Origin: an uncultured Verrucomicrobiota bacterium | GTDB taxonomy: Bacteria; Verrucomicrobiota; Verrucomicrobiia; Methylacidiphilales; CAMAQI01 | NCBI GenBank assembly: GCA_964555235.1 | Contig: CAZKRU010000001.1 | Span: 7,915 to 71,914 of the forward strand | Reading direction: 5' to 3' | DNA: 64,000 nucleotides | In this document: in pieces, positions 3,805-27,488 of the stretch | Layout: each line of letters begins with the position of its first letter | Position numbering within the stretch: the stretch's first letter is position 1 | Notes under the pieces: model-generated | Told to the model about the DNA's origin: nothing | Databases searched by the model: none | The model's input: the letters and a program-made list of their open reading frames with translations, nothing else | Translations under genes and position numbers: made by a program

Positions 3805-3876
3805 AGGAGGGATTATTCGATTTAAATTACCTGACGATCGTTGGGTTAGACAGCAAACAAAGAGTCAATTCGAAGC

Positions 3877-3913
3877 ATGATCACACGATAAATCTTAGCG
3901 TGTGATCTGTCAA
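3877..3913 (-). promoter_or_regulatory. Conserved promoter/operator-like motif upstream of array copy 2
   Basis: Coding strand reads TTGACA-gatcacacgctaagatt-TATCGT-gtgatcat: a -35 box, a 17-nt spacer and a TAnnnT -10-like box. A 9-bp inverted repeat GATCACACG (3879-3887) / CGTGTGATC (3899-3907) brackets the core. The motif lies 73 nt upstream of the ATG, and the same architecture recurs at 7323, 13984, 16551 and 17775. Confidence 0.5.
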
Positions 3914-3999
3914 ATTAAATTTCATCAGTCATCGAAAGAACTCTCTTTTCCCCCAACCCTTCGAACGTCAGTCCTTGAAGTCGTCGAGGTCAGATCTGT

Positions 4000-4605
4000 C
4001 TAAAATGCCTGCAAGTTTTTGACGAGAATCGTTACCGGCTCTCCAGGCTGATTCACAAACAAATGGATCGCACTCACGGTCGTCAGATCGAGCTCGTATT
4101 GAGCTGTTTTTTTGCCCTTTTTTTTGCCTCCCTCAAAGAGGACCTCGATCATTTTGGTATCCCCGGACTCAATTTGAACCGAACCGTTGATCCATTTCTT
4201 CTCATCGGGTTTGCCCGGATTATCAACCCGGATGGCCAACTTTACAGAACCTTGTCCGCTATTCGTAACCTCTGCACGAATGCCACGGAACGCGGACAAA
4301 TCCCAACTCCCCGTCTGGGGAGGAAAGTGGACATCAGGATATTTCTCACTGACCTTGAATTCGATTTTTACCGCTTTCTGGCCATTGGATTCCGCCAGAC
4401 TTACAGAGGATTCCCTTAATTTTAATCTTGAGAGGTCCGCCTCGCTTTCAATGGTGAAAAGCGACTTCGGCTCGAGCTTCGATTCCTCCGCCAAAGCCCC
4501 TCCGAAGTGGCTCATGAGGTAAAGAAATGCAATTACAGTGGCTTGGATCATCTTATTTTGAACGTGTGACATAAATCTCCTGGGCTGCTTTTCGTGAGGC
4601 TTCAA
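4000..4605 (-). CDS. Truncated array paralog: signal peptide + first CBM-like repeat only (stand-alone module or deletion remnant)
   Basis: 201-aa ORF, roughly 55-60% identical by eye to the N-terminus of 8550..11252. Its start (MSHVQNKMIQ...) overlaps the stop of 4553..7249, exactly as at the 11233/11252 junction. It ends ...LVKNLQAF*, where full-length copies continue. Confidence 0.6.
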   Translation of the reverse strand: MKPHEKQPRRFMSHVQNKMIQATVIAFLYLMSHFGGALAEESKLEPKSLFTIESEADLSRLKLRESSVSLAESNGQKAVKIEFKVSEKYPDVHFPPQTGSWDLSAFRGIRAEVTNSGQGSVKLAIRVDNPGKPDEKKWINGSVQIESGDTKMIEVLFEGGKKKGKKTAQYELDLTTVSAIHLFVNQPGEPVTILVKNLQAF

Positions 4606-7249
4606 TCATTTCAAGATAAGGAGTGTCTGTAACACTTAAAAAACCAACCCCATAGTTCTCGCCTTTGAGCGCGTTTCCGATTGCCGGTTGATCCAGCAGA
4701 CAAAACCAATGCACTCCAACAATCGAGGGATTGGATGCCGCTCCCATCACATACCGGGAAAACTTAACGGAACGGTCCACGGCGTTTTTTGCCCGTACAA
4801 GCCCGGGCCCGAAAACACCCCGGTCAGTTGCGCCAAAGTGGAACTCGCCGATCAGGATCGGCTTTTCAATTTCAACAAGAGGCTTCCAGGCTGCAATGGT
4901 TTCCCGATAGATGTTAAAGGATACCACATCGCAATACTCTGAGGCTATTTTTTCCACTTGTGCATTGTAATCGGCGAACCGACATCCCAGATAAAGTTTT
5001 TTGGGGGCAACCTCTTTAACCGCTTTGCTAACAACTTCAAAATACCGCCGGGCGATTTTGGCGTTAAATGCCCGCAAGTCTTTAATCCCCGCTTCCGTTT
5101 GGGGAATCTCCTTGTAGCTGATCATCGCTTCCCAATTCGACAGCTTGGAGCCCCAAGCCTGGTTCAATTTTTCAATCGTGCCGTAGCTGCTCTCCAAATA
5201 CTTCACGAACTCTACCTTGGCCGGATTGTCTTTGTTGCCGGCTAATGCCGCCTTGGCTTGGAAAGTGTCATCGCGCCAGGAGAGCTCATTATCGACAAAA
5301 TAGCCGATGCACATGGGATCATTCACGGAGTCCTTCGCAAACCGCTCCACCGCCTTTTTCACCTCCGCATCGAATTCTGGATTAAATGGATCCGGAATCG
5401 GATTGCGGGTATTTGCCTGCCATGGCAGGTTTTTAACTTGGAGGAATACCCAATCAGTATAAGGAATCCCCCCTTTTTTCAATACTTTGGGCTCGGACCA
5501 GTTTCCGATGGTATTAAAGCCCCAATTCATCAGCCGCCTGGGCATCAGATCCTCCCATACATTTTCATAATCCGACCCGTATTTCCTCTGAAGATTGGCT
5601 CCGTAAAAACTGAAGGTTCTCAGACTCATCCCCTTATAATCGCCATGCTTAATCCCGTTCTCCTTGGTTTTGCCCACGAACTTGCCAAACTCTTTTTCGT
5701 TTTTCCATGGCTCTTCGGAAAACCAGCCCTCCCTCCGATCGATGGGAGTGTGATTTTTCATTTGGACAACTGCCATCCCAAGGGAGAAAAAGAGCCGTCC
5801 CTCCGGATCCACCAAGTGCCATTTCCCATTGTGCTTTGCGGTATAAAAATGACCGGTCGCATTGAGCTGTGGTCCATCCGCCCATCCCCCATACCGATTC
5901 CAATTCGAAGGTCGCGGATTGGTATCAATATATTTTAATTCCGCTGTTTTCTCACGAATAAGATCACCATCCTCCTTAACCTTGCCCGGCCAATCCTGAT
6001 GGATATATTGCCCATAGCGATCAATGAACGGAAAAAAAGGCTCTGGAATAAACTCGCTCTTGGGATCAAAGACCCCCGTCGCCTTGATGCTGTGGACGGT
6101 GATATCATAAGGTCTGGAAGGGGTATTCAAAAACAGGCTGACCTGAACAACATTGGCAGGATCAATCATGGATCCCCGTTCGCTTCTCGGCCCCCATGGG
6201 GAAAAATACATCCCCTGAAGTTTTTCCCTCATTTCTTCTGCAAAATAACGATCGATCTCCACGGATGCAATTCCGCTTTCTCCAGGATCAAGACTGATCT
6301 TTCCCCCGTTGCTGTTGGCTCGACCGGTCGCATTGGGATTATCCACACGTACCGCAAGGGTGATGGACTCATTAGAATTGTTTGTTAATCCAAACTCGAC
6401 ATGAGTATAGGCCGCAAGATTCCAGGCCCCCTCGGGAGGCTTAAAGCTGATATTTGGATAGGGACTTTTGCATCCCATTTTCACACGTATTGCCTTAGCC
6501 CCATTGACATCGACGGCGTCAAATGTTGAATCGTTCGTCGAGATGAGGGATTTTGCATTGGCATCGGCAAAGTCCAATAGGAGAGGCTTTGTCCAAGGCT
6601 CATTTTTCACCACGGGCACAATCCCCATTTGCTCGGTCACTTCTGCTGCTGCAGGTTTGACCGCCGCTTCCCTAGGCGCACCAAAGGCCTGAATGCTCTT
6701 GACCATCAAGGAAACATCATTCTTGGGCTGGCTAATAAAAATATGAACTGCCGTCACTTCTGCAGGATTCAAAATATAGGTCGCTTTTTCTTTCCCTTTC
6801 TTGGATTTTTCAACTCCCGAAAAGGAGAGCTCGATCATTCGTGTTGTCCCCGGTTCTATTTCACCACCACCGGATATAAATTTCTTATCGGTTGAAGAGG
6901 CTCCCGGATTATCCGCGCGAATGGCGATCTTAACAGCCGCTTGTCCCGGGTTTATGATTTCCGCACGAATGCCGCCATAACCACTTAGATCCCATGTCCC
7001 AGACGGGGCTGAGAATTCAACGTCCGGATACTTCGGACTAGCTTTGAAATCAACCTTTAAGACTTTCTGTCCACCAGACACCGATAAGCTGACCGCCGAC
7101 TCCCGGGTTTTAACCTTTTTAACATCCTCTTCTCCCTCTAGCGCCACCAACGATTTTGTATTTAGCTCCGGCGTCGTTTCCTGAGCGGAGATCATTCCAG
7201 TAAAAAACGTGACAACCAAGAGCGAAAGAGCCATTGAGATTTGTTTCAT
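4553..7249 (-). CDS. Secreted glycoside hydrolase-like protein, array copy 3
   Basis: 898-aa ORF with signal peptide MKQISMALSLLVVTFFTGMISAQE. The domain order matches copy 2, with YFVDNELSW and LIGEFHFG motifs. Confidence 0.9.
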   Translation of the reverse strand: MKQISMALSLLVVTFFTGMISAQETTPELNTKSLVALEGEEDVKKVKTRESAVSLSVSGGQKVLKVDFKASPKYPDVEFSAPSGTWDLSGYGGIRAEIINPGQAAVKIAIRADNPGASSTDKKFISGGGEIEPGTTRMIELSFSGVEKSKKGKEKATYILNPAEVTAVHIFISQPKNDVSLMVKSIQAFGAPREAAVKPAAAEVTEQMGIVPVVKNEPWTKPLLLDFADANAKSLISTNDSTFDAVDVNGAKAIRVKMGCKSPYPNISFKPPEGAWNLAAYTHVEFGLTNNSNESITLAVRVDNPNATGRANSNGGKISLDPGESGIASVEIDRYFAEEMREKLQGMYFSPWGPRSERGSMIDPANVVQVSLFLNTPSRPYDITVHSIKATGVFDPKSEFIPEPFFPFIDRYGQYIHQDWPGKVKEDGDLIREKTAELKYIDTNPRPSNWNRYGGWADGPQLNATGHFYTAKHNGKWHLVDPEGRLFFSLGMAVVQMKNHTPIDRREGWFSEEPWKNEKEFGKFVGKTKENGIKHGDYKGMSLRTFSFYGANLQRKYGSDYENVWEDLMPRRLMNWGFNTIGNWSEPKVLKKGGIPYTDWVFLQVKNLPWQANTRNPIPDPFNPEFDAEVKKAVERFAKDSVNDPMCIGYFVDNELSWRDDTFQAKAALAGNKDNPAKVEFVKYLESSYGTIEKLNQAWGSKLSNWEAMISYKEIPQTEAGIKDLRAFNAKIARRYFEVVSKAVKEVAPKKLYLGCRFADYNAQVEKIASEYCDVVSFNIYRETIAAWKPLVEIEKPILIGEFHFGATDRGVFGPGLVRAKNAVDRSVKFSRYVMGAASNPSIVGVHWFCLLDQPAIGNALKGENYGVGFLSVTDTPYLEMIEASRKAAQEIYVTRSK

Positions 7250-7322
7250 AGGGGGGGATTATTCGATTTAAATTACCAGACGATCGTTGAGTTAGATAGC
7301 AAACAAAGAGTCAATTCTAAGC

Positions 7323-7359
7323 ATGATCACACGATAAATCTTAGCGTGTGATCTGTCAA
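7323..7359 (-). promoter_or_regulatory. Conserved promoter/operator-like motif upstream of array copy 3
   Basis: Contains GATCACACG (7325-7333), CGTGTGATC (7345-7353) and the reverse complement of TTGACA (7354-7359). The surrounding ~135 bp (7250-7383) nearly duplicate 3805-3940. The motif lies 74 nt upstream of the ATG. Confidence 0.5.
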
Positions 7360-7493
7360 ATTAAATTTCATCAGTCATCGAAAGTCCCCACTGCTTTCCA
7401 GAAAAATCAACCCAGCCCAAACCCAAAAAGAAATAACGCCGACTTTTTCAGTAGAATCGAATCGTTAGATACGTCCCCATCGCCCGTAGCGCG

Positions 7494-8267
7494 CTAGCGC
7501 GTGTGCCGTAACAGCCAAGTGTAGAGTTCCGGGTTTGCGTAGGTCTCGGTCCACGAATTGTGATTTGCCTCGGGATAGACGGTGAGCTGCACGTCGGTCA
7601 CGGCGACTCTTTTCAGCTCCTTGACCATAAGTTCCGATTCTTCGAGCGGGACCTTCGTATCCTTGGCGCCGTGGAAGGCCCAAACGCCCAGACTCGTTAG
7701 GGCGGATTTGTGTCTATTGCGGACAATATCGAGACGCTGACCCCCACCGCAGATTGGGACGACAGCCCCGAAACGCTCGGGGTACTTCATGGCGACGCTC
7801 CATGTGCCGTAGCCGCCCATGCTGAGACCCGTGAGGTAGATTCGGTGCGGGTCGACTTTGTGCTTCGCGGCGATTTCGTCCGCGAGCACCAGCACGCCGT
7901 CGTCGTCCCACCAAGCGTCTGCGGGGCACTGCGGCGAAACGACGATGAAATTCTCCGCGAGCGCCTTGCCGGCGGCGGACAGCGGCGACTCTCGCAGGAG
8001 CTTCGGAGGCCCGTGCTTCGCGACGAGAGAAGGATCACTGCCACGTTCGCCAGCTCCGTGGAGAAATACGAGCAACGGCCACGTTTTGCTCCCGGTGGCC
8101 TCGTAGCCGGTCGGTAGCGAAAGCAGGTAGGTGTAGCCGACTTTCTTGGTGATCGTGCGCTCGAAGGAGGCGACCGGCTGCGACTCGGCGGCGGAGACCG
8201 CGAGCGCGCCGGCTAGGACAAGCAGAAATAATAGGGACGTATCCCGTTTAACTTTTGAGTTCTTCAT
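7494..8267 (-). CDS. Secreted alpha/beta-hydrolase (carboxylesterase/phospholipase-type, CE1-like)
   Basis: 257-aa ORF with a signal peptide and the motifs LVFLHGAGERG, GLSMGGYG (GxSxG), FHGAKDTKVP and ANHNSW. A GAGGGG Shine-Dalgarno-like element lies 4 nt upstream. Sampled 60-mers are 55-70% GC, against ~35-45% in neighbouring sequence. Confidence 0.85.
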   Translation of the reverse strand: MKNSKVKRDTSLLFLLVLAGALAVSAAESQPVASFERTITKKVGYTYLLSLPTGYEATGSKTWPLLVFLHGAGERGSDPSLVAKHGPPKLLRESPLSAAGKALAENFIVVSPQCPADAWWDDDGVLVLADEIAAKHKVDPHRIYLTGLSMGGYGTWSVAMKYPERFGAVVPICGGGQRLDIVRNRHKSALTSLGVWAFHGAKDTKVPLEESELMVKELKRVAVTDVQLTVYPEANHNSWTETYANPELYTWLLRHTR

Positions 8268-8509
8268 AAACCCCTCTTAACTTCGCTTCTTTCTTGATTC
8301 GTTTTCGAATGCGTTTCAGTGCTGCTGTCACCGCCCTTTCTCCGCTCATTCCACATCTTCGACTCATCTCTTCAAGCGTTTCTCCACTTCGGACACCGCT
8401 TTCTCCCACTCCCATCCTCTTTCCATCCCGCGCAAAGCCGTCTGCTCCTTCCGATTCCCTTTCGCTGCCTTTTTGACTCGCGCCGTAAATTCTTCTCCGC
8501 CGAGATAAC

Positions 8510-8569
8510 TCATGAGGAAAAAACGACCATTAAACTCGCTTGAACCATCTTATTTTGAGCGTATGACAT
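8510..8569 (-). pseudogene. 5' remnant of a further array paralog (about 20-25 codons)
   Basis: The reverse complement reads MSYAQNKMVQASLMVVFSS*, homologous to the MSNVQNKLIKASSMALLFLMGHLGG and MSHVQNKMIQATVIAFLYLMSHFGG starts. It overlaps the stop of 8550..11252 as in the other junctions. After a 1-nt frameshift the homology continues to ...LMSYLGG (~8496) and then ends. Confidence 0.55.
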
Positions 8570-11252
8570 AAATCTCCTGGGCTACTTTTCGTGAGGCTTC
8601 AATCATTTCCAGATAGGGAGTGTCCGTGACACTTAAAAAGCCGTAACCGTGATTTTCGCCTTCCAGAGTGCGTCCTGCCGCATTTTCATCCACCAACGCG
8701 AACCAATGAACACCAACAAAATTAGGATTCGCTGCGGCTCCCCTGACATAGCGGGAAAATTTTACCGCGCGATCCTCCGCATTCTTCGCCTGGACCAGCC
8801 CACCCCCGAAAACACCGCGATCTGTGGAACCAAAATGAAACTCACCAACCATGCAGGGCTTGTCAATTTCAACTGGAGGTTTCCAAGCGGCGATGGTGTC
8901 CCGATAGATATTAAACGAAACCACATCGCAGTATTCAGCGGCGATTTTTACCACTTGCTCATTGTGGTCGGCAAAACGGCACCCCAAATAGAGTTTTTTA
9001 GGGGCAACCTCTTTTACAGCTTTTCTAACACCTTCAAAATACTGCCGGGCAATCATGGCGTTGAATGCTCTCAAGTCTTTAATTCCTGCTTCCGATTGGG
9101 GGATCTCCTTGTAGCTGATCATTTCCTCCCATTTCGACAGTTTGGATCCCCAAGCCTGATTCAGTTTTTCAATCGCTCCGTAGTTTCCCTCGAGATACTT
9201 GACGAACTCGACCTTCACGTAATTGTCTTTGTTGCCGGCCAGCGCCGCCTTGGCTTGAAAAGTATCATCCCGCCAGGACAATTCATTATCAACAAAATAG
9301 CCAATACACATCGGATCATTGATCGAGTCTTTTGTGAATCGAAGAGTTGCCTTTTTTACCTCTCCAACAAATTCTGGATGAAATGGATCAGGAATCGGAT
9401 TGCGGGTATTTGCCTGCCAGGGCAGATTCTTGCACTGCAGAAATACCCAATCGGTATAAGGAATTAGGCCCTTATGGATAATTTTGGGCTCAGACCAATT
9501 TCCAATGGTGTTAAAACCCCAGTTCATCAGTCGCTTAGGCATCAAACTTTCCCAAACATTTTCCCAGTCATTCCCGTATTTCCTCTGAAGGTTGGCACTG
9601 TAAAAACTGAACGTTCTGAGTTTCATTCCCTTGTATTCTCCGTGTTTGATCCCACGTTCATCCGTCGTCGTGATGAACTGACTGAACTCTTTTTCATTTT
9701 TCCAGGGCTCATCTGCAAACCAGCCCTCCCGGCGATCGATTGGAGTGGCAATGCCCTTTAATTTCACGACGTCCATTCCTAGCGAAAAAAAGAGTTTCCC
9801 CTCGGGATCAACCAAGTGCCATTTATTGTTATGCTTTGCTGTATAAAAGGAGCCGGTCGCATTAAGTTGGGGACCCTCAGCCCATCCTCCATAACGATTC
9901 CAGTTAGAGGGACGTGGATTGGAATCAATATACTTTAGTTCCGCCTCTTTTTCACGGGCGATGTCGCCGTCCGTTTTCACCTTACCTGGCCAATCCTGGT
10001 GGATGTATTGTCCGTATTTGTCAATAAATGGAAAAAAGGGCTCTGGGATCACCTCGCCCTTGGGATCAAAGGAACCAGTGGGTTTGATGCTATGGATGGT
10101 GATATCATAAGCTCTCGCCGGGTGGCTAAGAAAAAAGCTTACTTCAATAATATTACTCGGGTCAATCATAGCTCCATGGTTTCCTCTCCCCCCCCAGGGA
10201 GTTTTATGCATCCCCTCGAGTTTCTTCCTCAGATTTTCAGCAAAATAGCGATCCATCTCAATGGATACGATTCCGCTCTCTCCCGGATCAAGACTGATTT
10301 TCCCATTGTTCCTGTTGGATTTACCCGTGGCATTGGGATTATCCACTGTGGCCAACAGCTGGATGGATTCATTCGTATTGTTGGTTAATGCAAACTCAAC
10401 ATGTGTATAGGCCGAAAGATTCCAAGCGCCAGAAGGGGCTTTGAAAACTATATTGGGATAAGGGCTCTTAAATCCCGTCTTTACCCTCACCGCCTTGGCT
10501 CCGTTGATATCAGCAATTTCAAAGACAGAGTCATTGGTTGTGATGAGCGATCTCACATCAGGAGAGGAAAAATCAACCAGCAGAGGCTTTGTCCATGGCT
10601 CATTTTTGACGGTCGACACTGCCGACTTCCGCTCTTCATCCTGAGTTGCCGCTGCCGCCACTGAATTAGCGGTTCCCCCCGCAGGGACTCCGAATGCCTG
10701 AATATTTTTCACGATGAGCACCCCATCCTCTTTCGGTTGAGTGAGAAAAACGTGAATCGCAATAATCGCGGTACGATCGAGCGGATATTGAACTTGCTTC
10801 CCTTTGCTCTCACCAAAAACCACTTCGAAAACTCGCGTTTCACCAGGAGCCAGCGTATCACCTCCCACGATCCATTTTTTCTCTGCAGGAGTTCCTTGAT
10901 TATCAACACGAAGCGAAATCTTTTCCAGGTTTTTTCCCGCATTCGTAATCTCCGTACGAATCCCCGCGTATCCACTTAAATCCCAAGTCCCCGAAGGAGG
11001 TGAAAACTGAACATCGGGATATTTCTGACTTGCCTTAAAATCGATCTTTAAACACTTTTGTCCTCCCACTTCAGAAAGACTGACGTTGGCTTCGCGCGGC
11101 TTTAGTTTTGAGAGATCTGCATCACTTTCCATGTTAAACAGAGATTTCGGCTCGGGTTTCGTCTCCACCGCAAAAGCTCCTCCGAGGTGACCCATGAGGA
11201 AAAGAAGGGCCATTGAACTCGCTTTAATCAGCTTATTTTGAACGTTTGACAT
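8550..11252 (-). CDS. Secreted glycoside hydrolase-like protein, array copy 4
   Basis: 900-aa ORF with the same architecture, including YFVDNELSW and MVGEFHFG motifs. Its start overlaps the stop of 11233..13923 by 20 nt, which suggests an operon. Confidence 0.9.
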   Translation of the reverse strand: MSNVQNKLIKASSMALLFLMGHLGGAFAVETKPEPKSLFNMESDADLSKLKPREANVSLSEVGGQKCLKIDFKASQKYPDVQFSPPSGTWDLSGYAGIRTEITNAGKNLEKISLRVDNQGTPAEKKWIVGGDTLAPGETRVFEVVFGESKGKQVQYPLDRTAIIAIHVFLTQPKEDGVLIVKNIQAFGVPAGGTANSVAAAATQDEERKSAVSTVKNEPWTKPLLVDFSSPDVRSLITTNDSVFEIADINGAKAVRVKTGFKSPYPNIVFKAPSGAWNLSAYTHVEFALTNNTNESIQLLATVDNPNATGKSNRNNGKISLDPGESGIVSIEMDRYFAENLRKKLEGMHKTPWGGRGNHGAMIDPSNIIEVSFFLSHPARAYDITIHSIKPTGSFDPKGEVIPEPFFPFIDKYGQYIHQDWPGKVKTDGDIAREKEAELKYIDSNPRPSNWNRYGGWAEGPQLNATGSFYTAKHNNKWHLVDPEGKLFFSLGMDVVKLKGIATPIDRREGWFADEPWKNEKEFSQFITTTDERGIKHGEYKGMKLRTFSFYSANLQRKYGNDWENVWESLMPKRLMNWGFNTIGNWSEPKIIHKGLIPYTDWVFLQCKNLPWQANTRNPIPDPFHPEFVGEVKKATLRFTKDSINDPMCIGYFVDNELSWRDDTFQAKAALAGNKDNYVKVEFVKYLEGNYGAIEKLNQAWGSKLSKWEEMISYKEIPQSEAGIKDLRAFNAMIARQYFEGVRKAVKEVAPKKLYLGCRFADHNEQVVKIAAEYCDVVSFNIYRDTIAAWKPPVEIDKPCMVGEFHFGSTDRGVFGGGLVQAKNAEDRAVKFSRYVRGAAANPNFVGVHWFALVDENAAGRTLEGENHGYGFLSVTDTPYLEMIEASRKVAQEIYVIRSK

Positions 11253-13923
11253 AAATCTCCTGGGCTAATTTTCGAGAGGCCTCCACCATTTCAAGATAGG
11301 GCGTATCCGTAATACTTAAAAAACCGAAACCGTAATTTTCACAATCACTGACTCGACCCGACGTGGGCTCATCCACCAAAGCAAACCAATGCGCCCCCAC
11401 GATCAGAGGATTTGACGCCGCTCCCGTCACGTAGCGCGCAAACTTCACGGCACGATCCGCGGCATCTTTTGCTTTAGCAAGACCTGGCCCGAAAACCCCT
11501 CGATCTGTGGCACCAAAATGAAACTCTCCGATTATCACTGGCTTATCAATCTCAGCGACCGGCTTCCATCCGGCAACCGTGTCGCGGTAGATGTTGAATG
11601 AAACGACATCACAGTACTCGGCCGAAATCTTAACCACCTGGGCATTGTGATCGGCAAAGCGACAGCCCAGATATAGCTTCTTGGGAGCGACTTCTTTCAT
11701 CACCTTACTGACAATCTCGAAATATTTCCGGGCGATTTTTGCATTAAAATCTCTCAAATCCTTGACCGCCGCATCCGTGGTTGGAATCTCTTTGGCTCCG
11801 AGCATTTTTTCCCATTGGGAATACGATGTTCCCCATGCCGCATTTAATTTTTCGATCTTGCCGTAGCTCGCCTGAAGTTCCTTGATCAGCTCTACTTTGA
11901 CCGGTTTTGAAGCGTCACCCACCATGGCTGCCTTCGCCTGAAACGTGTCATCGCGCCAAGAAAGTTCGTTATCAACAAAGTACCCGATACAGAATGGATC
12001 CTCGAGACTTTCACTGGTGAATTGAACCGCATTTTTTCTGATTTCTTCCTCAAATGTCGGATGAAACGGATCCGCGATGGGATTACGGGTATTCGCCTGC
12101 CATGGAAGGCTTGGCGAACGATGAAAGACCCAATGAGTGTAAGGAATTCCCCCTTTTTTCAGAATTTTCGGATCAGACCAATTTCCAATCGTATTAAAAC
12201 CCCAATTCATGAGCCGTTTGGGCATCAGGTCGCACCAAGTGTTCTCCCAATCTGCCCCATATTTTCTTTGGAGATTGGCACCGAAAAAATTAAACGAACG
12301 GATCTTCTGCCCTTTATATTCTCCATGCTGAACCGCCGTTTCTTTAACCGTCGTCACTAATTCACTAAATCCCTTTTCATGCTCCCAAGGGGCATCCGCA
12401 AACCATCCATCTCTATGATCAATTGGCGTCCCATTCTTCGTCTGCACCACATCAATCCCCATGGAAAAGAATAAACGACCTTCGGGGTCGACAAGGTGCC
12501 ACTTTCCTTCGTGCTTCGCCGTGTAGAAATGTCCGGTCGCTTTCAATTGCGGGCCATCCGCCCAACCTCCGTAACGATTCCAGCTCGAAGGGCGAGGATT
12601 CGTATTGATATATTTTAATTCAAGTGCTTTCTCACGAGCAAAATCGTCGTTCGACTTCACCTTCCCCAGCCAATCCTTGTGAATGTATTGTCCGTAACGA
12701 TCAATGAAGGGGAAAAAGGGCTCGGGAATGACCTGAGTGGATGCATCAAAAGCGCCCACCGCTTTAATGCTGTTGACCGTGAATTCGTAAGGCTTTGCAG
12801 GAGTATTTAAAAAGAGACTGACTTGCACGATATTCGAAGGATCAATCATCGGGCCGTATTGAGAACGAACGCCCCACGGGGTGTAGCGCATTCCGGCGAG
12901 CTTCTCTCTCAATTTCTCAGCAAAGTAACGATTGAAGGTAACCGTGAGTGTTCCACTCTCACCCGGATCGAGACTCAGCTTCCCTCCATTGGAGTTGGAT
13001 TTTCCTGTGGCTCCCGGATTATCGACTCGTCCATTTATCTGAAGCGACTCTTGGCTCTTGTTCGTAATACCAATCTCAATTTGATTGTAAGCTTCGAGAT
13101 TCCAACTGCCATTCGCTGCGTTGAACGCGACGTTCGGAAAAGGCTTCGCGAAGCCGGTCGTGACCCGAAGCGCCTTCTGACCATTCACCTCAATAAATTC
13201 CTGCTTTGAATCGAGACCGGTAATGCGAGAGATGGCATCAGGTTCAGCGAAATTAAAGAGCTCAGGTTTCGTCCAAGGCTCATTTTTTACGGTCGGCCCC
13301 ACTGCGGCACCCGTCCCCTTAGGCTCGGAAGCCGCTTTGACAATCGGCGCCCCCTTCTCTGCGGTGGAACCTCCGAATGCCTGAATACTTTTCACGATGA
13401 GCACCCCATCCTCTTTCGGTTGAGCGAGAAAAACGTGAATCGCAATAATCGCCGCACGGTCGAGGGCATATTGAGCTTGCTTCCCTTTGCTCTCACCAAA
13501 AATCACTTCGAAAACTCGCGTTTCTCCAGGAGCCAGCTTATCACCTCCCGTGATCCATTTTTTCTCAGCAGGAGTCCCTTGATTATCAACACGAATCGAA
13601 ATTTTTTCCAGGTTTTTGCCCGCATTCGTAATCTCCGCACGGATCCCGGCGTATCCGCTTAAATCCCAAGTCCCGGAAGGAGGCGAAAACTGAACATCGG
13701 GGTACTTCTCACTTGCCTTAAAATCGATCTTTAAATATTTTTGTCCACTCCCTTCAGAAAGACTGACACTGGCTTCACGCGGCTTTAATTTTGAGAGATC
13801 CGTATCACTTTCAACCGCGAAAAGAGATTTAATGTTGCCTTCGGGTTTCCCCTCCTGCGCTGAAACTTGAATGTCATATCCTCCCAAGAGAAGGAGTGAG
13901 AAGAGTAAGGATTTTAATTTCAT
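11233..13923 (-). CDS. Secreted glycoside hydrolase-like protein, array copy 5
   Basis: 896-aa ORF with signal peptide MKLKSLLFSLLLLGG. The first CBM-like repeat is ~88% identical to that of copy 4, while the rest is ~60-65% identical. YFVDNELSW and IIGEFHFG motifs are present. Confidence 0.9.
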   Translation of the reverse strand: MKLKSLLFSLLLLGGYDIQVSAQEGKPEGNIKSLFAVESDTDLSKLKPREASVSLSEGSGQKYLKIDFKASEKYPDVQFSPPSGTWDLSGYAGIRAEITNAGKNLEKISIRVDNQGTPAEKKWITGGDKLAPGETRVFEVIFGESKGKQAQYALDRAAIIAIHVFLAQPKEDGVLIVKSIQAFGGSTAEKGAPIVKAASEPKGTGAAVGPTVKNEPWTKPELFNFAEPDAISRITGLDSKQEFIEVNGQKALRVTTGFAKPFPNVAFNAANGSWNLEAYNQIEIGITNKSQESLQINGRVDNPGATGKSNSNGGKLSLDPGESGTLTVTFNRYFAEKLREKLAGMRYTPWGVRSQYGPMIDPSNIVQVSLFLNTPAKPYEFTVNSIKAVGAFDASTQVIPEPFFPFIDRYGQYIHKDWLGKVKSNDDFAREKALELKYINTNPRPSSWNRYGGWADGPQLKATGHFYTAKHEGKWHLVDPEGRLFFSMGIDVVQTKNGTPIDHRDGWFADAPWEHEKGFSELVTTVKETAVQHGEYKGQKIRSFNFFGANLQRKYGADWENTWCDLMPKRLMNWGFNTIGNWSDPKILKKGGIPYTHWVFHRSPSLPWQANTRNPIADPFHPTFEEEIRKNAVQFTSESLEDPFCIGYFVDNELSWRDDTFQAKAAMVGDASKPVKVELIKELQASYGKIEKLNAAWGTSYSQWEKMLGAKEIPTTDAAVKDLRDFNAKIARKYFEIVSKVMKEVAPKKLYLGCRFADHNAQVVKISAEYCDVVSFNIYRDTVAGWKPVAEIDKPVIIGEFHFGATDRGVFGPGLAKAKDAADRAVKFARYVTGAASNPLIVGAHWFALVDEPTSGRVSDCENYGFGFLSITDTPYLEMVEASRKLAQEIYVKRSK

Positions 13924-13983
13924 TGGGAGGGATTCTGTTAAGTGTTGGTAGATCGAAAAGCCATTTACTCTGCAAATTGGATT

Positions 13984-14020
13984 ATGATTACACGTTAAAT
14001 CTTTAAATGTGATCTGTCAA
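13984..14020 (-). promoter_or_regulatory. Conserved promoter/operator-like motif upstream of copy 5/copy 4 operon
   Basis: Coding strand reads TTGACA-gatcacatttaaagatt-TAACGT-gtaatcat, 61 nt upstream of the ATG at 13923. Confidence 0.5.
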
Positions 14021-14164
14021 ATCGAACGATTGGAAACTTCAAAGAATCTTTTTTGAATCGGAAAAGTGCACGTGGTTCTCGCTCCATCCTGACCTGACAC
14101 TGATGCGCCCGTGATTCTAATCATAGAGGAAGTTCTCAATCCTCCCCGATTCGATGTAAGATAG

Positions 14165-14206
14165 CAACAAAATGCAACCCGCGCCCTCTTGTGAGGACGC
14201 GGGTTG
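14165..14206 (-). terminator. Rho-independent terminator-like hairpin downstream of S8 protease gene
   Basis: The stem is CAACCCGCG / CGCGGGTTG (14175-14206) with inner CCTC/GAGG pairing. On the minus strand it is followed by CATTTTGTTG. Confidence 0.55.
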
Positions 14207-14269
14207 ATCAAGTTTGTTAGAATTTAAGGAGAGCAGCTGAATGCCCACTCACGCCTTCAAACTCACTCT

Positions 14270-16492
14270 TTATTTCAGAGGAACTGCTCCCTCCGGATAG
14301 ACCCGAAGGAAGGTACTCCCCACGGCGCCATTCCACCCATCGACTGAGATTTGGTAGGTAGTCCCCATGACAACAGGAATCGTCACCAGTGACTTCCGAT
14401 CTGTAGGTGCCGACGACGTCCCTCGATCGTCATTGCTCCCCTTTTCGATCAAGGTCGTTAACTGATCTCCCTCATAGACTCCCAGCATCGTGTCAAATCC
14501 CTTAAGACCTCCATAAGTCTCAAAGAGATAGGTTCCCGTACTCGGAGCAACCCACGAAAACCAAATCGATCTCGCCGATGGAAATCCTGCTTTATCCGGT
14601 TCTCCCACTTCCACCGATGCCCCCGAATTATCAACCGCAATCTTGATGTTCGCTCCTGAGATCAACTGACGATTTGAGAAATCGTCATTGGGAGGAGGCA
14701 GATCGACGTGAACCGCAACGGTTCCAGTCTCACCGCTTTTACCATCAACTGCAATCAGGTAGCCCTTCCCTGATTGAACCGGAATGGTGACGTAACTGGT
14801 CTTTTTGCCATTCGCGTCATCATTACTTCCCAAAGGTAAGCCTTTGGGATTGCTCGCAGAATAGACTGCCATCACCGTATCCACCGCACTTCCTTCGGTA
14901 GAGATTCTGACGTTCCCACTTGCTTTCGCTACCCATCTAAACCAAACCGAGTGACCTCCCGCCACCCCCGCATGATCCAACTCCCCAACTTCTTTGGTCG
15001 CCCCTTGATTGGAAGCACGACCCGTTGCTGAGTTCTTCGTCAGCACAATCGCTTCAGCGATATCATCTCCCAACGGCCGTGTGTTCGTGCAAACTAATGC
15101 CTTCGCCACATTTAATCGTCCTTTCGATTGAACCTGGGCCCCATACCTTGCTTGAAGAGCAGCATCCGTCGATGTCTCGACCCCTCGACACAACCGATTG
15201 ATCAATTGGCTATAACTGTCAGCGGGGAAATGCGCCTTCATCAATGCCAACGCTCCTGCGACCTGAGGAGTCGCCATCGAGGTTCCACTCCATGCCGCAT
15301 ACGCCGTGTCAGAGCTTTTGATACAAGAAACAATTTCGTTTCCGGGAGCAAACAAATTCACGGTTCCCGAACCGTAATTGCTCCAGCTCGGCCTGGTCCC
15401 ATCACGAGAGATGGCTCCCACGGCAACGATGTTATCGAGCAAATACGATGACGGATAATGAGCCGCCACATCAATGTTCTGACCATTGTTTCCAGCCGCG
15501 GCAACAAAGATGATTCCAACCTGCCGCGCAGATTCAATTGAATCACGAAGTGCTTGAGAATAACCACCTCCACCCCAACTGTTACTCATGATATGGGCGC
15601 CCATTTTGCGAGCATACTCCACACACTCAATTGCATCAGAGGTAGTTCCACTACCCGATGCACTCAAAAACTTACAGCCCATGAGCTTCACCTTCGGCGC
15701 AATCCCTGTCATCCCTAACCCATCATTCGAAGAAGCCCCGATGACTCCGGCACAATGACTCCCGTGGCCATGATCGTCTTTCGGGTCTCCGTTCTTGCTT
15801 TTGATGGAGTTAATTCCATAAACGTCATCGATATATCCGTTCCCATCATCATCGACTTTGTTCGTCGCCTTGTCTCTCCCTTGAGCATCTAATCCCGTCT
15901 CGCCCGGATTCTTCCACATGCTGTTTTTGAGATCCTGATGCGTGTAGCGAATCCCCGTATCAATCACCGCCACAATAATATTCTCAGCAGAGGGCTGAAT
16001 ATCCCATGCTTCAGACGCATGAATATCCACACCGAAAACCCCGACCTTCGGATCGTTTTTTCCAGCCTGACCGGTATTCCGCAATGCCCATTGGCTCCCA
16101 TCCAAAAAGAGAGGATCATTGGGTGTCGCATTCAGTGAAATTTCAAAATCGGGCTCTGCAAAATCAACCGCGCCGCTCTTCCGATACTTCTCAATCATAC
16201 TCTCGACCGATTCCCCTGCCGGTACCTCAACCAAATGCGCATTCATTCGTTGAGAGAGAACTTTTTTAGATTGAGTCCTCAGCTTTTTATTGAGCGAATC
16301 AATTTCACCCAACTGCTTCCCTTTTTTAAATTTAACAATCAGCTGATTTTCCTTGAAAACAGGAGGCGACGGAGGCGTCGCCAAGTCGCTTGCTTCTTCT
16401 TGAGCTTGGAGTGGCATCCCAATCAGGAGGCTACATCCGATGGCTGCCAGCCAGGATTTCACGGTCTTTCGGTTCAATTTGAGCTTTTTCAT
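14270..16492 (-). CDS. Secreted subtilisin-like serine protease (peptidase S8) with C-terminal PPC-like domains
   Basis: 740 aa with a signal peptide and an I9-like propeptide. Triad motifs are VAVIDTGI (D), HGHGSHCAG (H) and SGTSMATPQVAG (S). Two C-terminal beta-domain repeats follow. Confidence 0.92.
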   Translation of the reverse strand: MKKLKLNRKTVKSWLAAIGCSLLIGMPLQAQEEASDLATPPSPPVFKENQLIVKFKKGKQLGEIDSLNKKLRTQSKKVLSQRMNAHLVEVPAGESVESMIEKYRKSGAVDFAEPDFEISLNATPNDPLFLDGSQWALRNTGQAGKNDPKVGVFGVDIHASEAWDIQPSAENIIVAVIDTGIRYTHQDLKNSMWKNPGETGLDAQGRDKATNKVDDDGNGYIDDVYGINSIKSKNGDPKDDHGHGSHCAGVIGASSNDGLGMTGIAPKVKLMGCKFLSASGSGTTSDAIECVEYARKMGAHIMSNSWGGGGYSQALRDSIESARQVGIIFVAAAGNNGQNIDVAAHYPSSYLLDNIVAVGAISRDGTRPSWSNYGSGTVNLFAPGNEIVSCIKSSDTAYAAWSGTSMATPQVAGALALMKAHFPADSYSQLINRLCRGVETSTDAALQARYGAQVQSKGRLNVAKALVCTNTRPLGDDIAEAIVLTKNSATGRASNQGATKEVGELDHAGVAGGHSVWFRWVAKASGNVRISTEGSAVDTVMAVYSASNPKGLPLGSNDDANGKKTSYVTIPVQSGKGYLIAVDGKSGETGTVAVHVDLPPPNDDFSNRQLISGANIKIAVDNSGASVEVGEPDKAGFPSARSIWFSWVAPSTGTYLFETYGGLKGFDTMLGVYEGDQLTTLIEKGSNDDRGTSSAPTDRKSLVTIPVVMGTTYQISVDGWNGAVGSTFLRVYPEGAVPLK

Positions 16493-16550
16493 CGTTCCTA
16501 TCTCCTTTTATTATTTCAACTGACTTTTTACTTTCAATTCCGATAAATGA

Positions 16551-16584
16551 ATGATCACAGGTTAAATCATTTAATCGTTCAAAG
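16551..16584 (-). promoter_or_regulatory. Conserved promoter-like motif upstream of S8 protease gene
   Basis: Coding strand reads ...gattaaatGATTTAACCTGTGATCAT, 59 nt upstream of the ATG at 16492. It shares the GATTTAACnTGTGATC core with the 17775 site and overlaps the 3' end of the SGNH gene. Confidence 0.4.
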
Positions 16585-17670
16585 ATTCGGCAAAATGCGC
16601 GTATAAAGGCCGTCCGCAAAGATTTGAGCGCCCTTGGGAGTCAGATGGACCGCATCCACTAAACTTTTTTCGGTCGTAGCAGTGATGATCTCCTCCCCAT
16701 TGACGACAAAGATATTGGCGTCACCTGCTGCTTTTCGTGCCGTTACGATCTCGGTGACCGCATTTCGATAAGGCTCAATCGTCACTCCATTTCCATTCAC
16801 AACCGTCTTCGTGTAAGTTTGGCGAATCAAAAAGATCTTCGCATCCGGATGACTCGTCCGAATCGTTCGAACATCCTCATCCAATCCCTTTTTGTAATCA
16901 GCCACACTCTTCTCCCCCTGCCAATCATTGTAGCCAATCAGATAGGTGATCATGTCAACTTTGGTCCAGTTGTTTACCAATGCGGTGATCCGGGGAGCAA
17001 TCTTACTTCCCCCACTGGCAAGATTGAAAAGCTCATATCCCAGCTTTTCCGATAAGAGAAAGGCGTAGGTCTTGTAGGCTGCCGATGACTGACCTGTTCC
17101 ATGCGTAATCGAATCCCCCAGCGCGAGGTAAACCTTCTTCTGAGGCACCACCAGCGGCACCAAAGGTTTTCCTGGGACCAGATCAATTCCTGTCAGAAAC
17201 GGATTCGACCAGCTCGGCAATACAATGTCATAGGTCGACTCACCCGCCACCGCACTTGTCAGCGACACGGTCATCTCATGCTGTGTGTTGGGAAAGTTGA
17301 ATGCTTGGAGCCAGACGCCATTCACATAAACCCCAAAACTTGAACCTTTATTCACTTCGCCAGCGATCGTCTTAAAATTGACGTTGATCGTCGGACTGGC
17401 AGTGCGAAAGAGAATCCGAACCCCCGAGGTCGTTCTCGCACGGGTTCCAAATGCCTGAAGCTGTCCAACCGGGATCGAAAGAATCTCTTCGGGCATCCGA
17501 AGAAACTCGACCCCCAAGGCGTCATTGACTGCAAACTTCGAACCCTGAATCAAAATGTTGGGATCCGTCGGTGCGACAGAGACCAAACTCTGAGCCATCC
17601 CGTAAAACGGGGTCAATGCTAAAAAGAGAATCGCTACCATACTACGTTTAAGGATCGATTGTATTTTCAT
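16579..17670 (-). CDS. Secreted SGNH/GDSL hydrolase (CE2-like esterase architecture)
   Basis: 363 aa with a signal peptide and an N-terminal beta-sandwich. LALGDSITHG supplies the block I Ser and DAVHLTPKG the block V DxxH. Confidence 0.85.
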   Translation of the reverse strand: MKIQSILKRSMVAILFLALTPFYGMAQSLVSVAPTDPNILIQGSKFAVNDALGVEFLRMPEEILSIPVGQLQAFGTRARTTSGVRILFRTASPTINVNFKTIAGEVNKGSSFGVYVNGVWLQAFNFPNTQHEMTVSLTSAVAGESTYDIVLPSWSNPFLTGIDLVPGKPLVPLVVPQKKVYLALGDSITHGTGQSSAAYKTYAFLLSEKLGYELFNLASGGSKIAPRITALVNNWTKVDMITYLIGYNDWQGEKSVADYKKGLDEDVRTIRTSHPDAKIFLIRQTYTKTVVNGNGVTIEPYRNAVTEIVTARKAAGDANIFVVNGEEIITATTEKSLVDAVHLTPKGAQIFADGLYTRILPNL

Positions 17671-17774
17671 AGGATTTGGATTGAGTTCTAATTTATCGAA
17701 CTGTTTTTCTGATGATTGCCCCTCGAACTTGCGGACAGATTTCCCTCATGAGCTTCAATAAAGGTAAATTCATA

Positions 17775-17811
17775 ACGATCACAGGTTAAATCATTAAATA
17801 ATCTTCGTCAA
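17775..17811 (-). promoter_or_regulatory. Conserved promoter-like motif upstream of SGNH hydrolase gene
   Basis: Coding strand reads TTGACG-aagattatttaatgatt-TAACCT-gtgatcgt, 105 nt upstream of the ATG at 17670. Confidence 0.45.
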
Positions 17812-17850
17812 CACTAAAATATTGTAATTGTGATTTATTTTTAAAATGTG

Positions 17851-18156
17851 GATACCCCTTTCTGGATTAGCGACACGTGAGGCCCAGGCGGCATATCACC
17901 GGGTATCTTAAAGCTTCCGAGCGACGATCTTAACTTGGGAAACGCAAAGTACGATTTCTCCGGAAGTGTGGTTAATGAGTATTTTTAAAGCTACGCTCGA
18001 CGATATAGGCCGGCGGAAGGGATGCTCAAAGAGTTCCTTCATGAACTTCCCGTCAGGGGCCGATTGCTCTCAAGGCGGCGAATGCTGCCGCCATGGCAAT
18101 CGCTGTCACCGCAAGAGAACGGTACGAGATTGAGTCCGCCACTAAGGGGGCTCAAG
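17851..18156. other. Structured non-coding segment of unknown identity (possible ncRNA or decayed element end)
   Basis: No convincing ORF. Nested stems include GATACCC 17851-57 / GGGTATC 17901-07, CGATTGC 18061-67 / GCAATCG 18096-102 and an inner GGCGGC 18074-79 / GCCGCC 18087-92. The segment abuts the 42-bp arm-like repeat. Confidence 0.25.
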
Positions 18157-18198
18157 AAATTCCAAAAACGATCCCCCGTACTGGCAATTCTACTGGCA
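18157..18198. repeat. 42-bp repeat shared with the integrase-proximal arm of the island (contains TACTGGCA-N4-TACTGGCA)
   Basis: aaattccaaaaacgatcccccgtactggcaattctactggca matches 58136-58177 at 40/42 positions. The flanks are unrelated on both sides. Confidence 0.65.
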
Positions 18199-18261
18199 CG
18201 AGCCCGATACCGTAGGAGTTACAAAAAATCATTATTTCCGTCAGCACCATAAGTTCAGATA

Positions 18262-18870
18262 TCAACTCTTCAAGCCTTCACTAATCGTTTTTGCTCGAAA
18301 ATAAAGTGCATCATTACCAATGGCTCGCATCCACTCAAGCGCTTTGGATATTTCTGAAGTAGTCGCATCCAGCGCAATCAAGTCTTGGACGTGACGCCGC
18401 CCCTTTTGTCCCTCACAAGCCGCATACAATTTCAAACTGATTAGATCCTGACGACTGGCAAAACATATCGTTAAACAAGGGCCATAATCGACCCTCTTTG
18501 CTCGAAATTGAATTCCCTCGGGAAGCGGCAAATCCAAAAGCGACATCGCTTGATGATTCACCCAATCGGACTGGGCGTTCAAATCCCGGGCAGTTTCCGT
18601 GACAAGATGACAAAAACCTTCAGGCAACGGATTGCGTGTGATTTCCCCTTGATCAAGAACCGCGATAACATCCACATCACGGGTCGTCCTTGAAATTCCA
18701 TGTTGAAGAATCAAATCCGCACCACCCACCACCAGTAATGAAAGCGGAGAATGATCCACAAGTGCCATCTTTCGACCCAAACGAATCAGGAGAGCCTCGA
18801 TCTCCTCCCTGGAATGAACCTCCCGCATTGACTCAAACCCGTTCCACAGGCTTGAACGAACCATCAACAT
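18262..18870 (-). CDS. Nucleotidyltransferase-fold protein (AbiEii/DUF6036-like), cassette copy A
   Basis: 202 aa with the polymerase-beta NTase signature LLVVGGADLILQHGISRTTRDVDVIAV (hGG...DxD). The downstream SRQDLISLKLYA...HVQDLIAL region resembles AbiEii/DUF6036-type NTases. The likelier start is M15 (18828), 4 nt after the stop of the upstream ORF. Confidence 0.75.
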   Translation of the reverse strand: MLMVRSSLWNGFESMREVHSREEIEALLIRLGRKMALVDHSPLSLLVVGGADLILQHGISRTTRDVDVIAVLDQGEITRNPLPEGFCHLVTETARDLNAQSDWVNHQAMSLLDLPLPEGIQFRAKRVDYGPCLTICFASRQDLISLKLYAACEGQKGRRHVQDLIALDATTSEISKALEWMRAIGNDALYFRAKTISEGLKS

Positions 18871-19072
18871 CCCAATGTTTTTCTTGCTTCATACGCACCT
18901 GTCGAGTAGGCGCCTCAGGAAACCGCTTGGGATTTGGAAAATCATTAAGGGCAATCACCCAAAAAGCAGAGGACTGGCGATCCCACAATCCAATATGGGA
19001 ATTGCGCCCTTCCCCTCGATACCAAACTCCATCCTCCAGAGCTTCCATCGAAAAATATGTCTCGGTTGCCAT
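18833..19072 (-). CDS. Small protein of unknown function coupled to NTase gene, copy A
   Basis: 79-aa ORF (MATETYFSMEALEDGVWYRGEGRNSHIGLWD...) tightly coupled to the downstream NTase gene. Both cassette copies are identical at nucleotide level. No family is recognisable by eye. Confidence 0.6.
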   Translation of the reverse strand: MATETYFSMEALEDGVWYRGEGRNSHIGLWDRQSSAFWVIALNDFPNPKRFPEAPTRQVRMKQEKHWDVDGSFKPVERV

Positions 19073-19466
19073 ACTCAGACTCTAACATAGCCTTTGAGAA
19101 GTGTCGAGCCGATCAAAAACATCTTCAACCCAATCGATTATACGTCTGCCGAAGTGCCAAAGTCTCTTTCTGGTAACTCCGGGAGTTTCATTTTGAACGC
19201 ACGAAAGGTGATTTTCGGTGAGAAGCATACTGCCACACGTGAGATCCGCATTCCGAAAATAACCTTCACGGATGAAGATTAAGATAAAATTCGCCCGCCC
19301 GATTATTTTAAATCCAAGTCGATTTTTGGCCTTTGAAAGCCATTTTCAGAAGAAAATCCATTGATCATAGCGATTTTCACGGACCCCTTCCTTATTCAAA
19401 ATAAGGTCGGCGCGATCTAAGATTTGTTATGGCTTTTGTTATGACTTTTCTATTTTTAGAGACTCA

Positions 19467-19484
19467 AAATGACGCAAGTCATTT
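19467..19484 (-). terminator. Hairpin that may be the displaced original tRNA-Cys terminator
   Basis: On the minus strand, directly after the tRNA-3'-end repeat, the sequence reads TTTTTTATTTAC-AAATGAC-TTGC-GTCATTT-TGAG. The stem is 7 bp and the T-run is weak. Confidence 0.35.
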
Positions 19485-19496
19485 GTAAATAAAAAA

Positions 19497-19516
19497 AGGC
19501 GGGAGCCGGAATCGAA
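19497..19516. repeat. Distal att-like direct repeat (copy of tRNA-Cys 3' end)
   Basis: aggcgggagccggaatcgaa is identical (20/20) to 58221-58240, i.e. the T-loop through the discriminator of the tRNA. Identity stops at 19517. Confidence 0.75.
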
Positions 19517-19609
19517 AGATCTTGCTTAATTTTTTGTTACTATAAACTATTTTTGAGAGGAGAACAAGCCATATAGTACGCTTAACAAAACTTAAAATCA
19601 CATAGCCAA

Positions 19610-19629: not shown

Positions 19630-19692
19630 CGAACCCGATGCCGCAGGAGTTACGAAAAATTATTATTCCAGTCATCACCATAAGTTCAGAGA

Positions 19693-27485: not shown

Positions 27486-27488
27486 TGC

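Follow-up and report, generated by a model that had tools for sequence, protein, structure and literature searches.

A short conserved sequence is found five times upstream of genes for agarases and associated enzymes in a 64,000-nucleotide stretch of DNA (termed the window) from an uncultured Verrucomicrobiota bacterium of the Methylacidiphilales (contig CAZKRU010000001.1, positions 7,915 to 71,914 of the forward strand). The shared core is GATTTAnCnTGTnATC. This element is probably an operator bound by a transcription factor that acts as a dimer. The most likely candidate is a repressor of the LacI/GalR family that controls an agar/porphyran utilization regulon in Verrucomicrobiota. Its position in the window, its conservation as a palindrome upstream of orthologous genes in other organisms, and its occurrence together with a LacI-family regulator gene are described below. 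An earlier note on this DNA had read the five sites as shared strong promoters bracketed by an inverted repeat, with the repeat as the operator of a repressor. The observation itself is confirmed and the note was right in spirit, i.e. there are promoters, an operator and a regulon, but the parts were assigned wrongly. The core appears to be the operator, and the outer arm of the inverted repeat appears to be an accessory feature peculiar to the GH50 promoters.

Five copies of the element in the window

A search of the whole window with GATTTANCNTGTNATC, allowing up to one mismatch, yields exactly five matches. Each has 0 mismatches, all are on the minus strand and all are intergenic. By chance 0.07 matches are expected; this is also the mean in the shuffled controls, none of which reaches five. 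The 16-bp core matches are at positions 3879–3894, 7325–7340, 13986–14001, 16553–16568 and 17777–17792 (termed S1 to S5). A position weight matrix (PWM) of the window sites, used to scan both strands of the 64 kb, gives 33–37 bits for the five sites and 12 bits or less for everything else. Thus the motif is not a generic repeat scattered in coding DNA, a possibility the earlier note had raised.

The five sites all precede genes for secreted hydrolases: three GH50 beta-agarase units, an S8 protease gene and an SGNH esterase gene. The distance from the end of the 16-bp core to the start codon is 74 nt (GH50a), 75 nt (GH50b), 62 nt (GH50d), 60 nt (S8) and 106 nt (SGNH). The previously given spacing of 59–105 nt was measured from the site ends and agrees with these values of 60–106 nt. 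The sites and their promoter elements are listed here; the scores of 19.1–25.4 bits come from a matrix trained on GH50-upstream sites (see below), and the 33–37 bits above from the window-site PWM.

S1, predicted operator: 3878..3895, minus strand; 18-bp form AGATTTATCGTGTGATCA, 16-bp core at 3879–3894; overlaps the −10 TATCGT (3885–3890) and the expected start site; upstream of GH50a; 19.1 bits
S1, −35 and extra half-site: 3899..3913, minus strand; TTGACA at 3908–3913, followed in the spacer by GATCACACG at 3899–3907, the left arm of a 29-bp palindrome at 3879–3907
S2, predicted operator: 7324..7341, minus strand; identical to S1; −10 at 7331–7336; upstream of GH50b
S2, −35 and extra half-site: 7345..7359, minus strand; TTGACA at 7354–7359, GATCACACG at 7345–7353
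S3, predicted operator: 13985..14002, minus strand; AGATTTAACGTGTAATCA; −10 TAACGT at 13992–13997; upstream of the GH50d-GH50c operon; 25.4 bits
S3, −35 and extra half-site: 14008..14020, minus strand; TTGACA at 14015–14020, GATCACA at 14008–14014
S4, predicted operator: 16552..16569, minus strand; TGATTTAACCTGTGATCA; −10-like TAACCT at 16559–16564; in the 86-nt gap from the SGNH stop to the S8 start; 24.5 bits
S5, promoter and predicted operator: 17776..17811, minus strand; −35 TTGACG at 17806–17811, −10 TAACCT at 17783–17788, operator TGATTTAACCTGTGATCG at 17776–17793; upstream of SGNH; 21.0 bits

S4 and S5 are present in identical form on two independent 2.4-kb Logan contigs (L001 and L002) of the same organism from other sequencing runs, and are therefore not an assembly artefact.

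The pattern TTGACR-N17-TAWCSTGT matches S1, S2, S3 and S5 (4 matches vs. 0.00 expected), and the same four sites fit the sigma70 pattern of a TTGACA-like −35 and a TAnnnT −10 that are 17 ± 1 nt apart. This bears out the sigma70-like pair described in the note for four of the five sites, and also its statement that S4 has no correctly spaced −35; the sequence TTGAAC at S4 overlaps the stop codon of SGNH, and 12 nt separate it from the −10. The sites are located where promoters are expected, so that as to location the promoter reading of the note holds. Generic promoter-like matches in positions 1–20000 are at chance level overall (23 vs. 21). In the window sites the left half of the element (GATTTAA/T) also serves as the −10, whereas the right half reads TGT(G/A)ATC.

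The element in related species

The nearest GH50 relatives outside the source contig display 52–58% aa sequence identity. Six contigs (L023, L024, L025, L026, L028 and L029) were obtained via GH50 and a seventh (L045) via the regulator described below. Every GH50 orthologue fetched, i.e. in 7 of 7 contigs, has the same 16–18 bp element at 20–106 nt upstream of its start. In the relatives it is a perfect or near-perfect palindrome of the form TGATTTAAGCTTAAATCA, and a flanking T and A make it an 18-bp palindrome (T...A). The elements upstream of GH50 are as follows:

L023: GATTAAACCTTAAATC
L024: GATTTAAGCTTAAATC, 16/16 positions symmetric
L025: GATTTAAGCTTTAATC
L026: GATTACAGGTTTAATC
L028: GATTTCACCTGAAATC
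L029: GATTTAAGGTGAAATC
L045: GATTGAAGGATAAATC

The window sequence GATTTAACCTGTGATC differs from the L028 sequence at three positions, and by this comparison the two are the same element.

A symmetric PWM trained only on the GH50-upstream sites was used to scan the related contigs. This gives nine further sites, eight of which are intergenic and upstream of sulfatase, PATR-repeat (autotransporter-associated) and GH50 genes; their locations include the region between divergent sulfatase genes. The ninth is within a PATR gene, 57 nt in from its called 5′ end. For shuffled sequences there are 0–3 hits at ≥11 bits per 176 kb, compared with 18 + 4 observed. Apart from the ninth site and two sites at 0 and 13 nt, the sites in relatives are 20–174 nt upstream of the called start.

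The position of the element relative to the promoter differs between organisms. In the relatives it is found 4, 14, 17–18, 23 or 30 nt after a TTGACA or TTGACC, or there is no such hexamer nearby. The varying distance indicates a palindromic module separate from the promoter and not a hexamer at fixed spacing, and a module of this type, in or next to the core promoter, is the signature of a transcription-factor operator; such freedom of position is typical of repressor sites. The roles given in the note, where the conserved core was the promoter and the outer inverted repeat the operator, are thereby reversed: in the relatives it is the core that forms the palindrome, and the hexamers are not conserved.

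A candidate LacI-family regulator

Five of the seven contigs (L023, L024, L026, L029 and L045) have a gene for a LacI-family regulator in the same-strand cluster downstream of the element. Typical clusters have the order sulfatase-regulator-sulfatase-GH50-SGNH, or GH50-sulfatase-SGNH-regulator. The regulator orthologues are 71–80% identical between contigs. They show a helix-turn-helix with the reading head LGVSHTLVSCVASGRMG, the hinge motif FRPNRLALALKG and a sensor domain that resembles periplasmic (sugar-) binding proteins, and the sequence aligns end to end with the structures of CcpA, PurR and LacI. Named homologues are from Opitutaceae, Chthoniobacterales, Methylacidiphilales and Cerasicoccus, which places the regulator lineage in Verrucomicrobiota. 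The note had left its repressor unidentified; the LacI-type gene in these putatively operator-controlled clusters provides a candidate family.

A compilation of 1303 LacI-family regulators gives even palindromes of 16–22 nt, with >75% of the sites at 30–140 nt before the start codon and 72% of the regulators autoregulated (PMC4052901). The element described here agrees with this profile in its even 16/18-bp palindrome, its position in the promoter region and the autoregulation implied by the regulator gene inside the cluster.

A LacI homologue with 43% identity differs in its recognition helix (SRVLNN vs. SCVASG) and is found beside a different palindrome, ATATTACTCGTGTAATAT. This is a weak indication that regulator and operator change together. 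The palindrome, of 18 bp, is at positions 8062–8079 of contig L040, upstream of a gene for a 1615-aa CBM9 protein, and may represent a possible sister regulon. The 43% homologue (P0200) was considered as the regulator of the source organism and rejected, as it is from other samples and has the different palindrome nearby. Second LacI-like genes in L023 and L045 were also rejected; being only 24% identical to each other, they do not form a conserved partner.

Relationship of the five sites

The five sites are not independent. S1 and S2 are duplicates, with the whole 5′ untranslated region and promoter near-identical. S3 belongs to a GH50 paralogue, and the GH50d protein is 64% identical to GH50a. 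Between the upstream regions of S1 and S3 just two parts can be aligned, the stretch TTTGACA to ATCAT (33 of 39 positions) and the ribosome-binding region, while the flanks cannot; an aligned block between unalignable flanks is a footprint of selection. S4 (16534–16604) and S5 (17758–17860) are alike over about 55 nt, a stretch that reaches past the operator in both directions. A whole regulatory region may thus have been copied locally between two non-homologous genes. By sequence comparison the five sites would thus amount to roughly two or three independent examples.

The inverted repeat and an extra half-site

The inverted repeat of the note was given as 7–9 bp at three sites. At S1 and S2 it is present and longer than stated: the arms are perfect over 9 nt and extend to 13 nt with 12/13 matches, and with 3 nt between them form a 29-bp palindrome. 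At S3 there is only GATCACA against GATTACA (6/7), which is unreported at a seed of 6.

The right arm of the outer repeat is the same sequence as the right half of the predicted operator. The left arm, GATCACA, is in the spacer between −35 and −10. It constitutes a third half-site, which has the orientation of the left half of the operator and precedes that half by 13 nt. The sequence is confined to the paralogous GH50 promoters S1, S2 and S3 and is absent from S4, S5 and all relatives. Because of this, and because its three carriers share ancestry, the left arm cannot be the shared operator. GATCACA has nevertheless been kept between S1 and S3 while neighboring spacer bases have changed; the extra half-site is possibly functional and may stabilize binding. 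L026 has GATTACA as a half-site, which is one step from GATCACA. Weaker GATTA-type repeats are found 8 and 11 nt upstream of the operator at S4 and S5, but these are not relied on.

Proposed mode of regulation

In the window the upstream half of the predicted operator contains the −10 of a sigma70-type promoter (GATT-TAACCT) and the downstream half lies over the expected start site, a position suited to repression by occlusion. Operators of the lac/gal type repress by excluding or trapping RNA polymerase. Without inducer the repressor would occupy the site and deny RNA polymerase access to the −10 and the start of transcription. At S4, which lacks a −35, its role may instead be to stop read-through from S5. 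Release of the repressor would be brought about by a product of polysaccharide breakdown, such as an agar-derived sugar, and the genes for the five GH50 agarases, the esterase (SGNH) and the protease (S8) would be turned on together. The identity of the binding protein, its action as a repressor and the nature of the inducer are inferred.

The note had proposed a shared operator and a regulon consisting of the GH array, the S8 protease and the SGNH esterase. The conservation across species supports the operator and the regulon. Membership of SGNH is supported as well, since SGNH homologues are found in the GH50 operon of three relatives (L026, L029 and L045). For the S8 protease the only support is its site in the window. 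A further SGNH homologue, P0003 (in L042 and L043), was set aside; it adjoins an AraC-type hybrid regulator and has no motif.

Several observations weigh against a LacI-type operator. A tblastn search of the window shows no orthologue of the candidate regulator. The only LacI-family gene there (37308–38381) encodes a protein with 22% identity to the conserved group and has no motif in its own upstream region, and was rejected as the regulator. The assignment is therefore by association in relatives, and for the source organism the pairing is a prediction. L025 and L028 have no such regulator within 10 kb. The center of the palindrome is CG in S1–S3 and in L026 (position 2783), CC/GG in S4, S5, L023, L028 and L029, and GC in L024 and L025. 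It is always G/C but is not the fixed CG found in about 90% of LacI-family motifs; 78 of the 1303 compiled regulators have a different or degenerate center (PMC4052901). The window sites have the length and ends (GAT...ATC) seen in relatives, but only about half of their half-site positions are symmetric. This asymmetry may arise because the upstream half must remain a −10 (TAnnnT), the downstream half being this organism's half-site, TGT(G/A)ATC. The extra half-site is 22 bp from the right half, which a LacI-type dimer cannot span, and the LacI-type reading does not account for this part of the architecture. A scan with AWGATTTAWCSTGTRATCRT of a genome collection that does not contain the source genome gave 20 hits, all of them single and in unrelated taxa, which is close to the estimate for chance, and a metagenome scan with TTGACA-N12-18-WGATTWMASSTKWAATCA gave 10 hits, mostly in AT-rich DNA and apparently in coding sequence, none of them beside GH50-like genes; with chance-level hits only, these scans do not extend the regulon.

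Alternative explanations

The reading of the earlier note, in which GATTTAnCnTGTnATC is the −10 region of a shared strong promoter and a repressor bracketing this promoter binds the outer repeat GATCACAcg...cgTGTGATC, fits the 29-bp near-perfect palindrome of S1 and S2 and the conservation of GATCACA between S1 and S3 despite a changed spacer. It is nonetheless considered improbable: the left arm is missing from S4, S5 and the seven related contigs while the core is present in all and palindromic in the relatives, the three arm-bearing sites descend from one duplicated GH50 promoter and count as one observation, and the core does not keep the fixed distance from the −35 that a −10 would need. 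An activator, or a dual regulator, needed for recruiting RNA polymerase is given about the same small likelihood. It would explain S4, which is the best match to the window motif and yet has no −35. Some LacI-family proteins, e.g. CcpA and Cra, can activate, which also counts for it. However, S1, S2, S3 and S5 have a good −35/−10 pair with the optimal 17-nt spacer, and there the element lies over the −10 and the start, which is the position of a repressor; an activator would be expected upstream of the −35. In relatives the element may be inside the spacer or as far along as downstream of the −10. It is also conceivable, though unlikely, that several changes occurred jointly in this organism. 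The half-site preference would have shifted from GATTTAA to GATCACA. The agarase promoters would have acquired a 29-bp palindrome with three half-sites over the spacer, −10 and start, bound by more than a single LacI-type dimer (two dimers, a higher oligomer or a second protein), and the S8 protease would have been recruited into the agarolytic regulon. As both outer arms contain GATC, methylation-sensitive (phase-variable) binding is a further possibility within this reading; the observed/expected ratio of GATC is 0.96, which is uninformative as a hint of Dam methylation.

There might also be no dedicated regulator, the likeness of the sites being due only to promoters duplicated with tandem genes, plus a local copy from S5 to S4. 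The near-identity of the whole 5′ region in S1 and S2, the 55 nt shared by S4 and S5, and the location of all five sites within 14 kb are as expected from such a history. We regard this as very unlikely to suffice, given that GH50a and GH50d have diverged to 64% protein identity while 33 of 39 promoter/operator positions are kept between flanks that no longer align, that the element is common to non-homologous genes (GH50, S8 and SGNH), and that in seven other organisms a palindromic form of it is found before the orthologues and before sulfatase and PATR genes. Least probable of all is a promoter for an alternative sigma factor, e.g. an extracytoplasmic function (ECF) sigma factor like that encoded at 60249–60863, or a transcribed RNA hairpin or structured element. 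The long conserved block does include the −10 region, and an ECF sigma gene is present in the window, but no GAAC...CGT(C) pair is found at a fixed spacing and no motif upstream of the ECF sigma gene, and recognition by a sigma factor does not involve the palindromic symmetry seen in relatives. As to RNA, S1 and S2 fold to a stable hairpin (−13.5 kcal/mol, z = −3.5), whereas S3, S4 and S5 fold no better than shuffled sequences (z = −0.4 to −1.0), and a transcript that begins at the predicted start would include just half of the element. Rfam shows no match in positions 1–20000, its only hit in the window being the tRNA at 58221–58292. A shared RNA hairpin was rejected on these grounds, and the CRP-type and ECF-type readings fail on arrangement and spacing. 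A dispersed repeat or the end of a mobile element (repetitive extragenic palindrome or miniature inverted-repeat transposable element) was also rejected; there are no other copies in the window, the collection scans show just single hits at chance level, and across species only 16–18 bp are shared, always upstream of functionally related genes.

Comparison with known systems

The proposed operator for a LacI-type repressor resembles the E. coli lac and gal systems in covering the −10 to +1 region of a sigma70-type promoter. It differs in that no auxiliary full operators for looping were found, and in the location of S4 between two genes without a −35. With the local repressors of sugar catabolism of the LacI/GalR family (E. 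coli LacI, GalR and PurR, and Bacillus CcpA; PMC4052901) it has in common an even 16/18-bp palindrome that overlaps the core promoter at 20–174 nt (mostly 30–140 nt) before the start codon, a regulator gene inside the regulated cluster (in five of the seven relatives), and targets that are carbohydrate-active enzymes, transporters and sulfatases. In contrast to the common TG-AA-CG-TT-CA pattern, the half-site here is GATTTAA with an outer TGA...TCA and a variable G/C center, and the recognition helix of the candidate, SHTLVSCVASGR, is atypical. Asymmetry is strong in the window sites, three of which contain a third half-site. Verrucomicrobiota are not mentioned in the compilation.

The idea of a LacI-type repressor of agarase genes is the same as that proposed for DagR of Streptomyces coelicolor, from an unrelated phylum (PMC8055832). 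Because one of its figures was fabricated, the paper has been retracted (PMC9178413), and it is not used as precedent here.

Sites of the CRP/FNR type (TGTGA-N6-TCACA) are alike only in the TGTGA and TCACA pentamers. In the window the order is TCACA...TGTGA, 15 nt apart, the opposite arrangement, as the earlier note had pointed out; no TCACA is found 6 nt after any TGTGA in the five sites. A test for TGTGA-N6-TCACA or TTGAT-N4-ATCAA shows no correctly spaced partner half-site in the five sites, and the relatives have no TGTGA at all.

Regulation in algal-polysaccharide-degrading Verrucomicrobiota is almost unstudied. What is new here is an operator motif and a candidate regulator group, of a well-known kind, in a little-studied phylum. 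These provide a handle for predicting which enzymes are switched together in agar/porphyran degradation; the predicted set includes GH50 agarases, sulfatases, SGNH and other esterases, PATR-repeat surface proteins and the S8 protease. The promoter/operator pair could also serve for inducible expression in these bacteria. No concept is changed, as local sugar-responsive repression is expected and is an ordinary bacterial gene switch.

Predicted target genes and neighboring regions

The genes associated with the five sites in the window are:

GH50e: 2–1006, minus strand; the first 335 aa of P0050 (88% identical to GH50a); runs off the window
GH50a beta-agarase: 1111–3804, minus strand; 897 aa; target of S1; matches solved GH50 agarase chains 4bq2/4bq4 (E = 5e-93)
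GH50b beta-agarase: 4553–7249, minus strand; 898 aa; target of S2
GH50c: 8550–11252, minus strand; overlaps GH50d; no motif in front
GH50d: 11233–13923, minus strand; first gene of the S3 unit
terminator-like hairpin (intrinsic): 14175..14206, minus strand; 14 pairs, 10 of them G-C, then a T-rich tail; at the end of the S8 unit, with 154 nt from there to the S3 −35
S8 subtilase: 14270–16492, minus strand; 740 aa; fervidolysin-like prodomain; target of S4
SGNH/GDSL esterase: 16579–17670, minus strand; 363 aa; target of S5

The open reading frames of GH50d and GH50c overlap and thus form one operon (8550..13923) driven from S3. No motif is found in the 104-nt gap upstream of GH50e (1007–1110). 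As there is no motif before either GH50e or GH50c, both are probably co-transcribed with the genes upstream of them, GH50e from S1. The strong terminator (14206..14175) separates the S8 unit from the S3 promoter.

An N-terminal remnant of a further GH50 copy (4003–4533, minus strand) is 47% identical to residues 10–188 of P0050. It is located directly after GH50b and has no promoter motif. Counting this remnant, the tandem GH50 array appears to have once had at least six copies. A distant GH50-like gene (53558–55804, minus strand) encodes a 748-aa CBM9-domain protein that is 27% identical to the GH50 catalytic part (P0050 residues 399–883) and has no operator.

GH50a, b, d and e have AAT(C/G)CCCTCC directly before the ATG and no Shine-Dalgarno sequence (minus strand, at 3805–3818, 7250–7264, 13924–13936 and 1007–1020, respectively). 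C-rich tracts are also present before the GH50 starts in L023, L024, L026 and L028, and before two sulfatase genes and a GH16 gene in the window; the S8 gene has a normal AAGGAG. Having the sense of the anti-Shine-Dalgarno sequence itself, the CCUCC tract is unable to pair with it, and so it may be a different translation-initiation signal.

Directly upstream of the S5 promoter region is a tandem duplication of two genes (18262–18870 and 19693–20301, minus strand), each encoding a 202-aa DUF6036 nucleotidyltransferase-like protein and having identical 30-nt upstream sequences. Further along, a cluster at 23226–32780 (minus strand) encodes a 1154-aa autotransporter, a protein of 1271 aa that has no Pfam hits, and two proteins that show N-terminal methylation motifs of the prepilin type. 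The motif does not precede this cluster, although PATR-repeat genes have the predicted operator in relatives. At 56966–58292 (minus strand) a tyrosine-recombinase gene (phage integrase family) adjoins the tRNA gene at 58221–58292. This is a likely integration boundary of the island mentioned in the earlier note.

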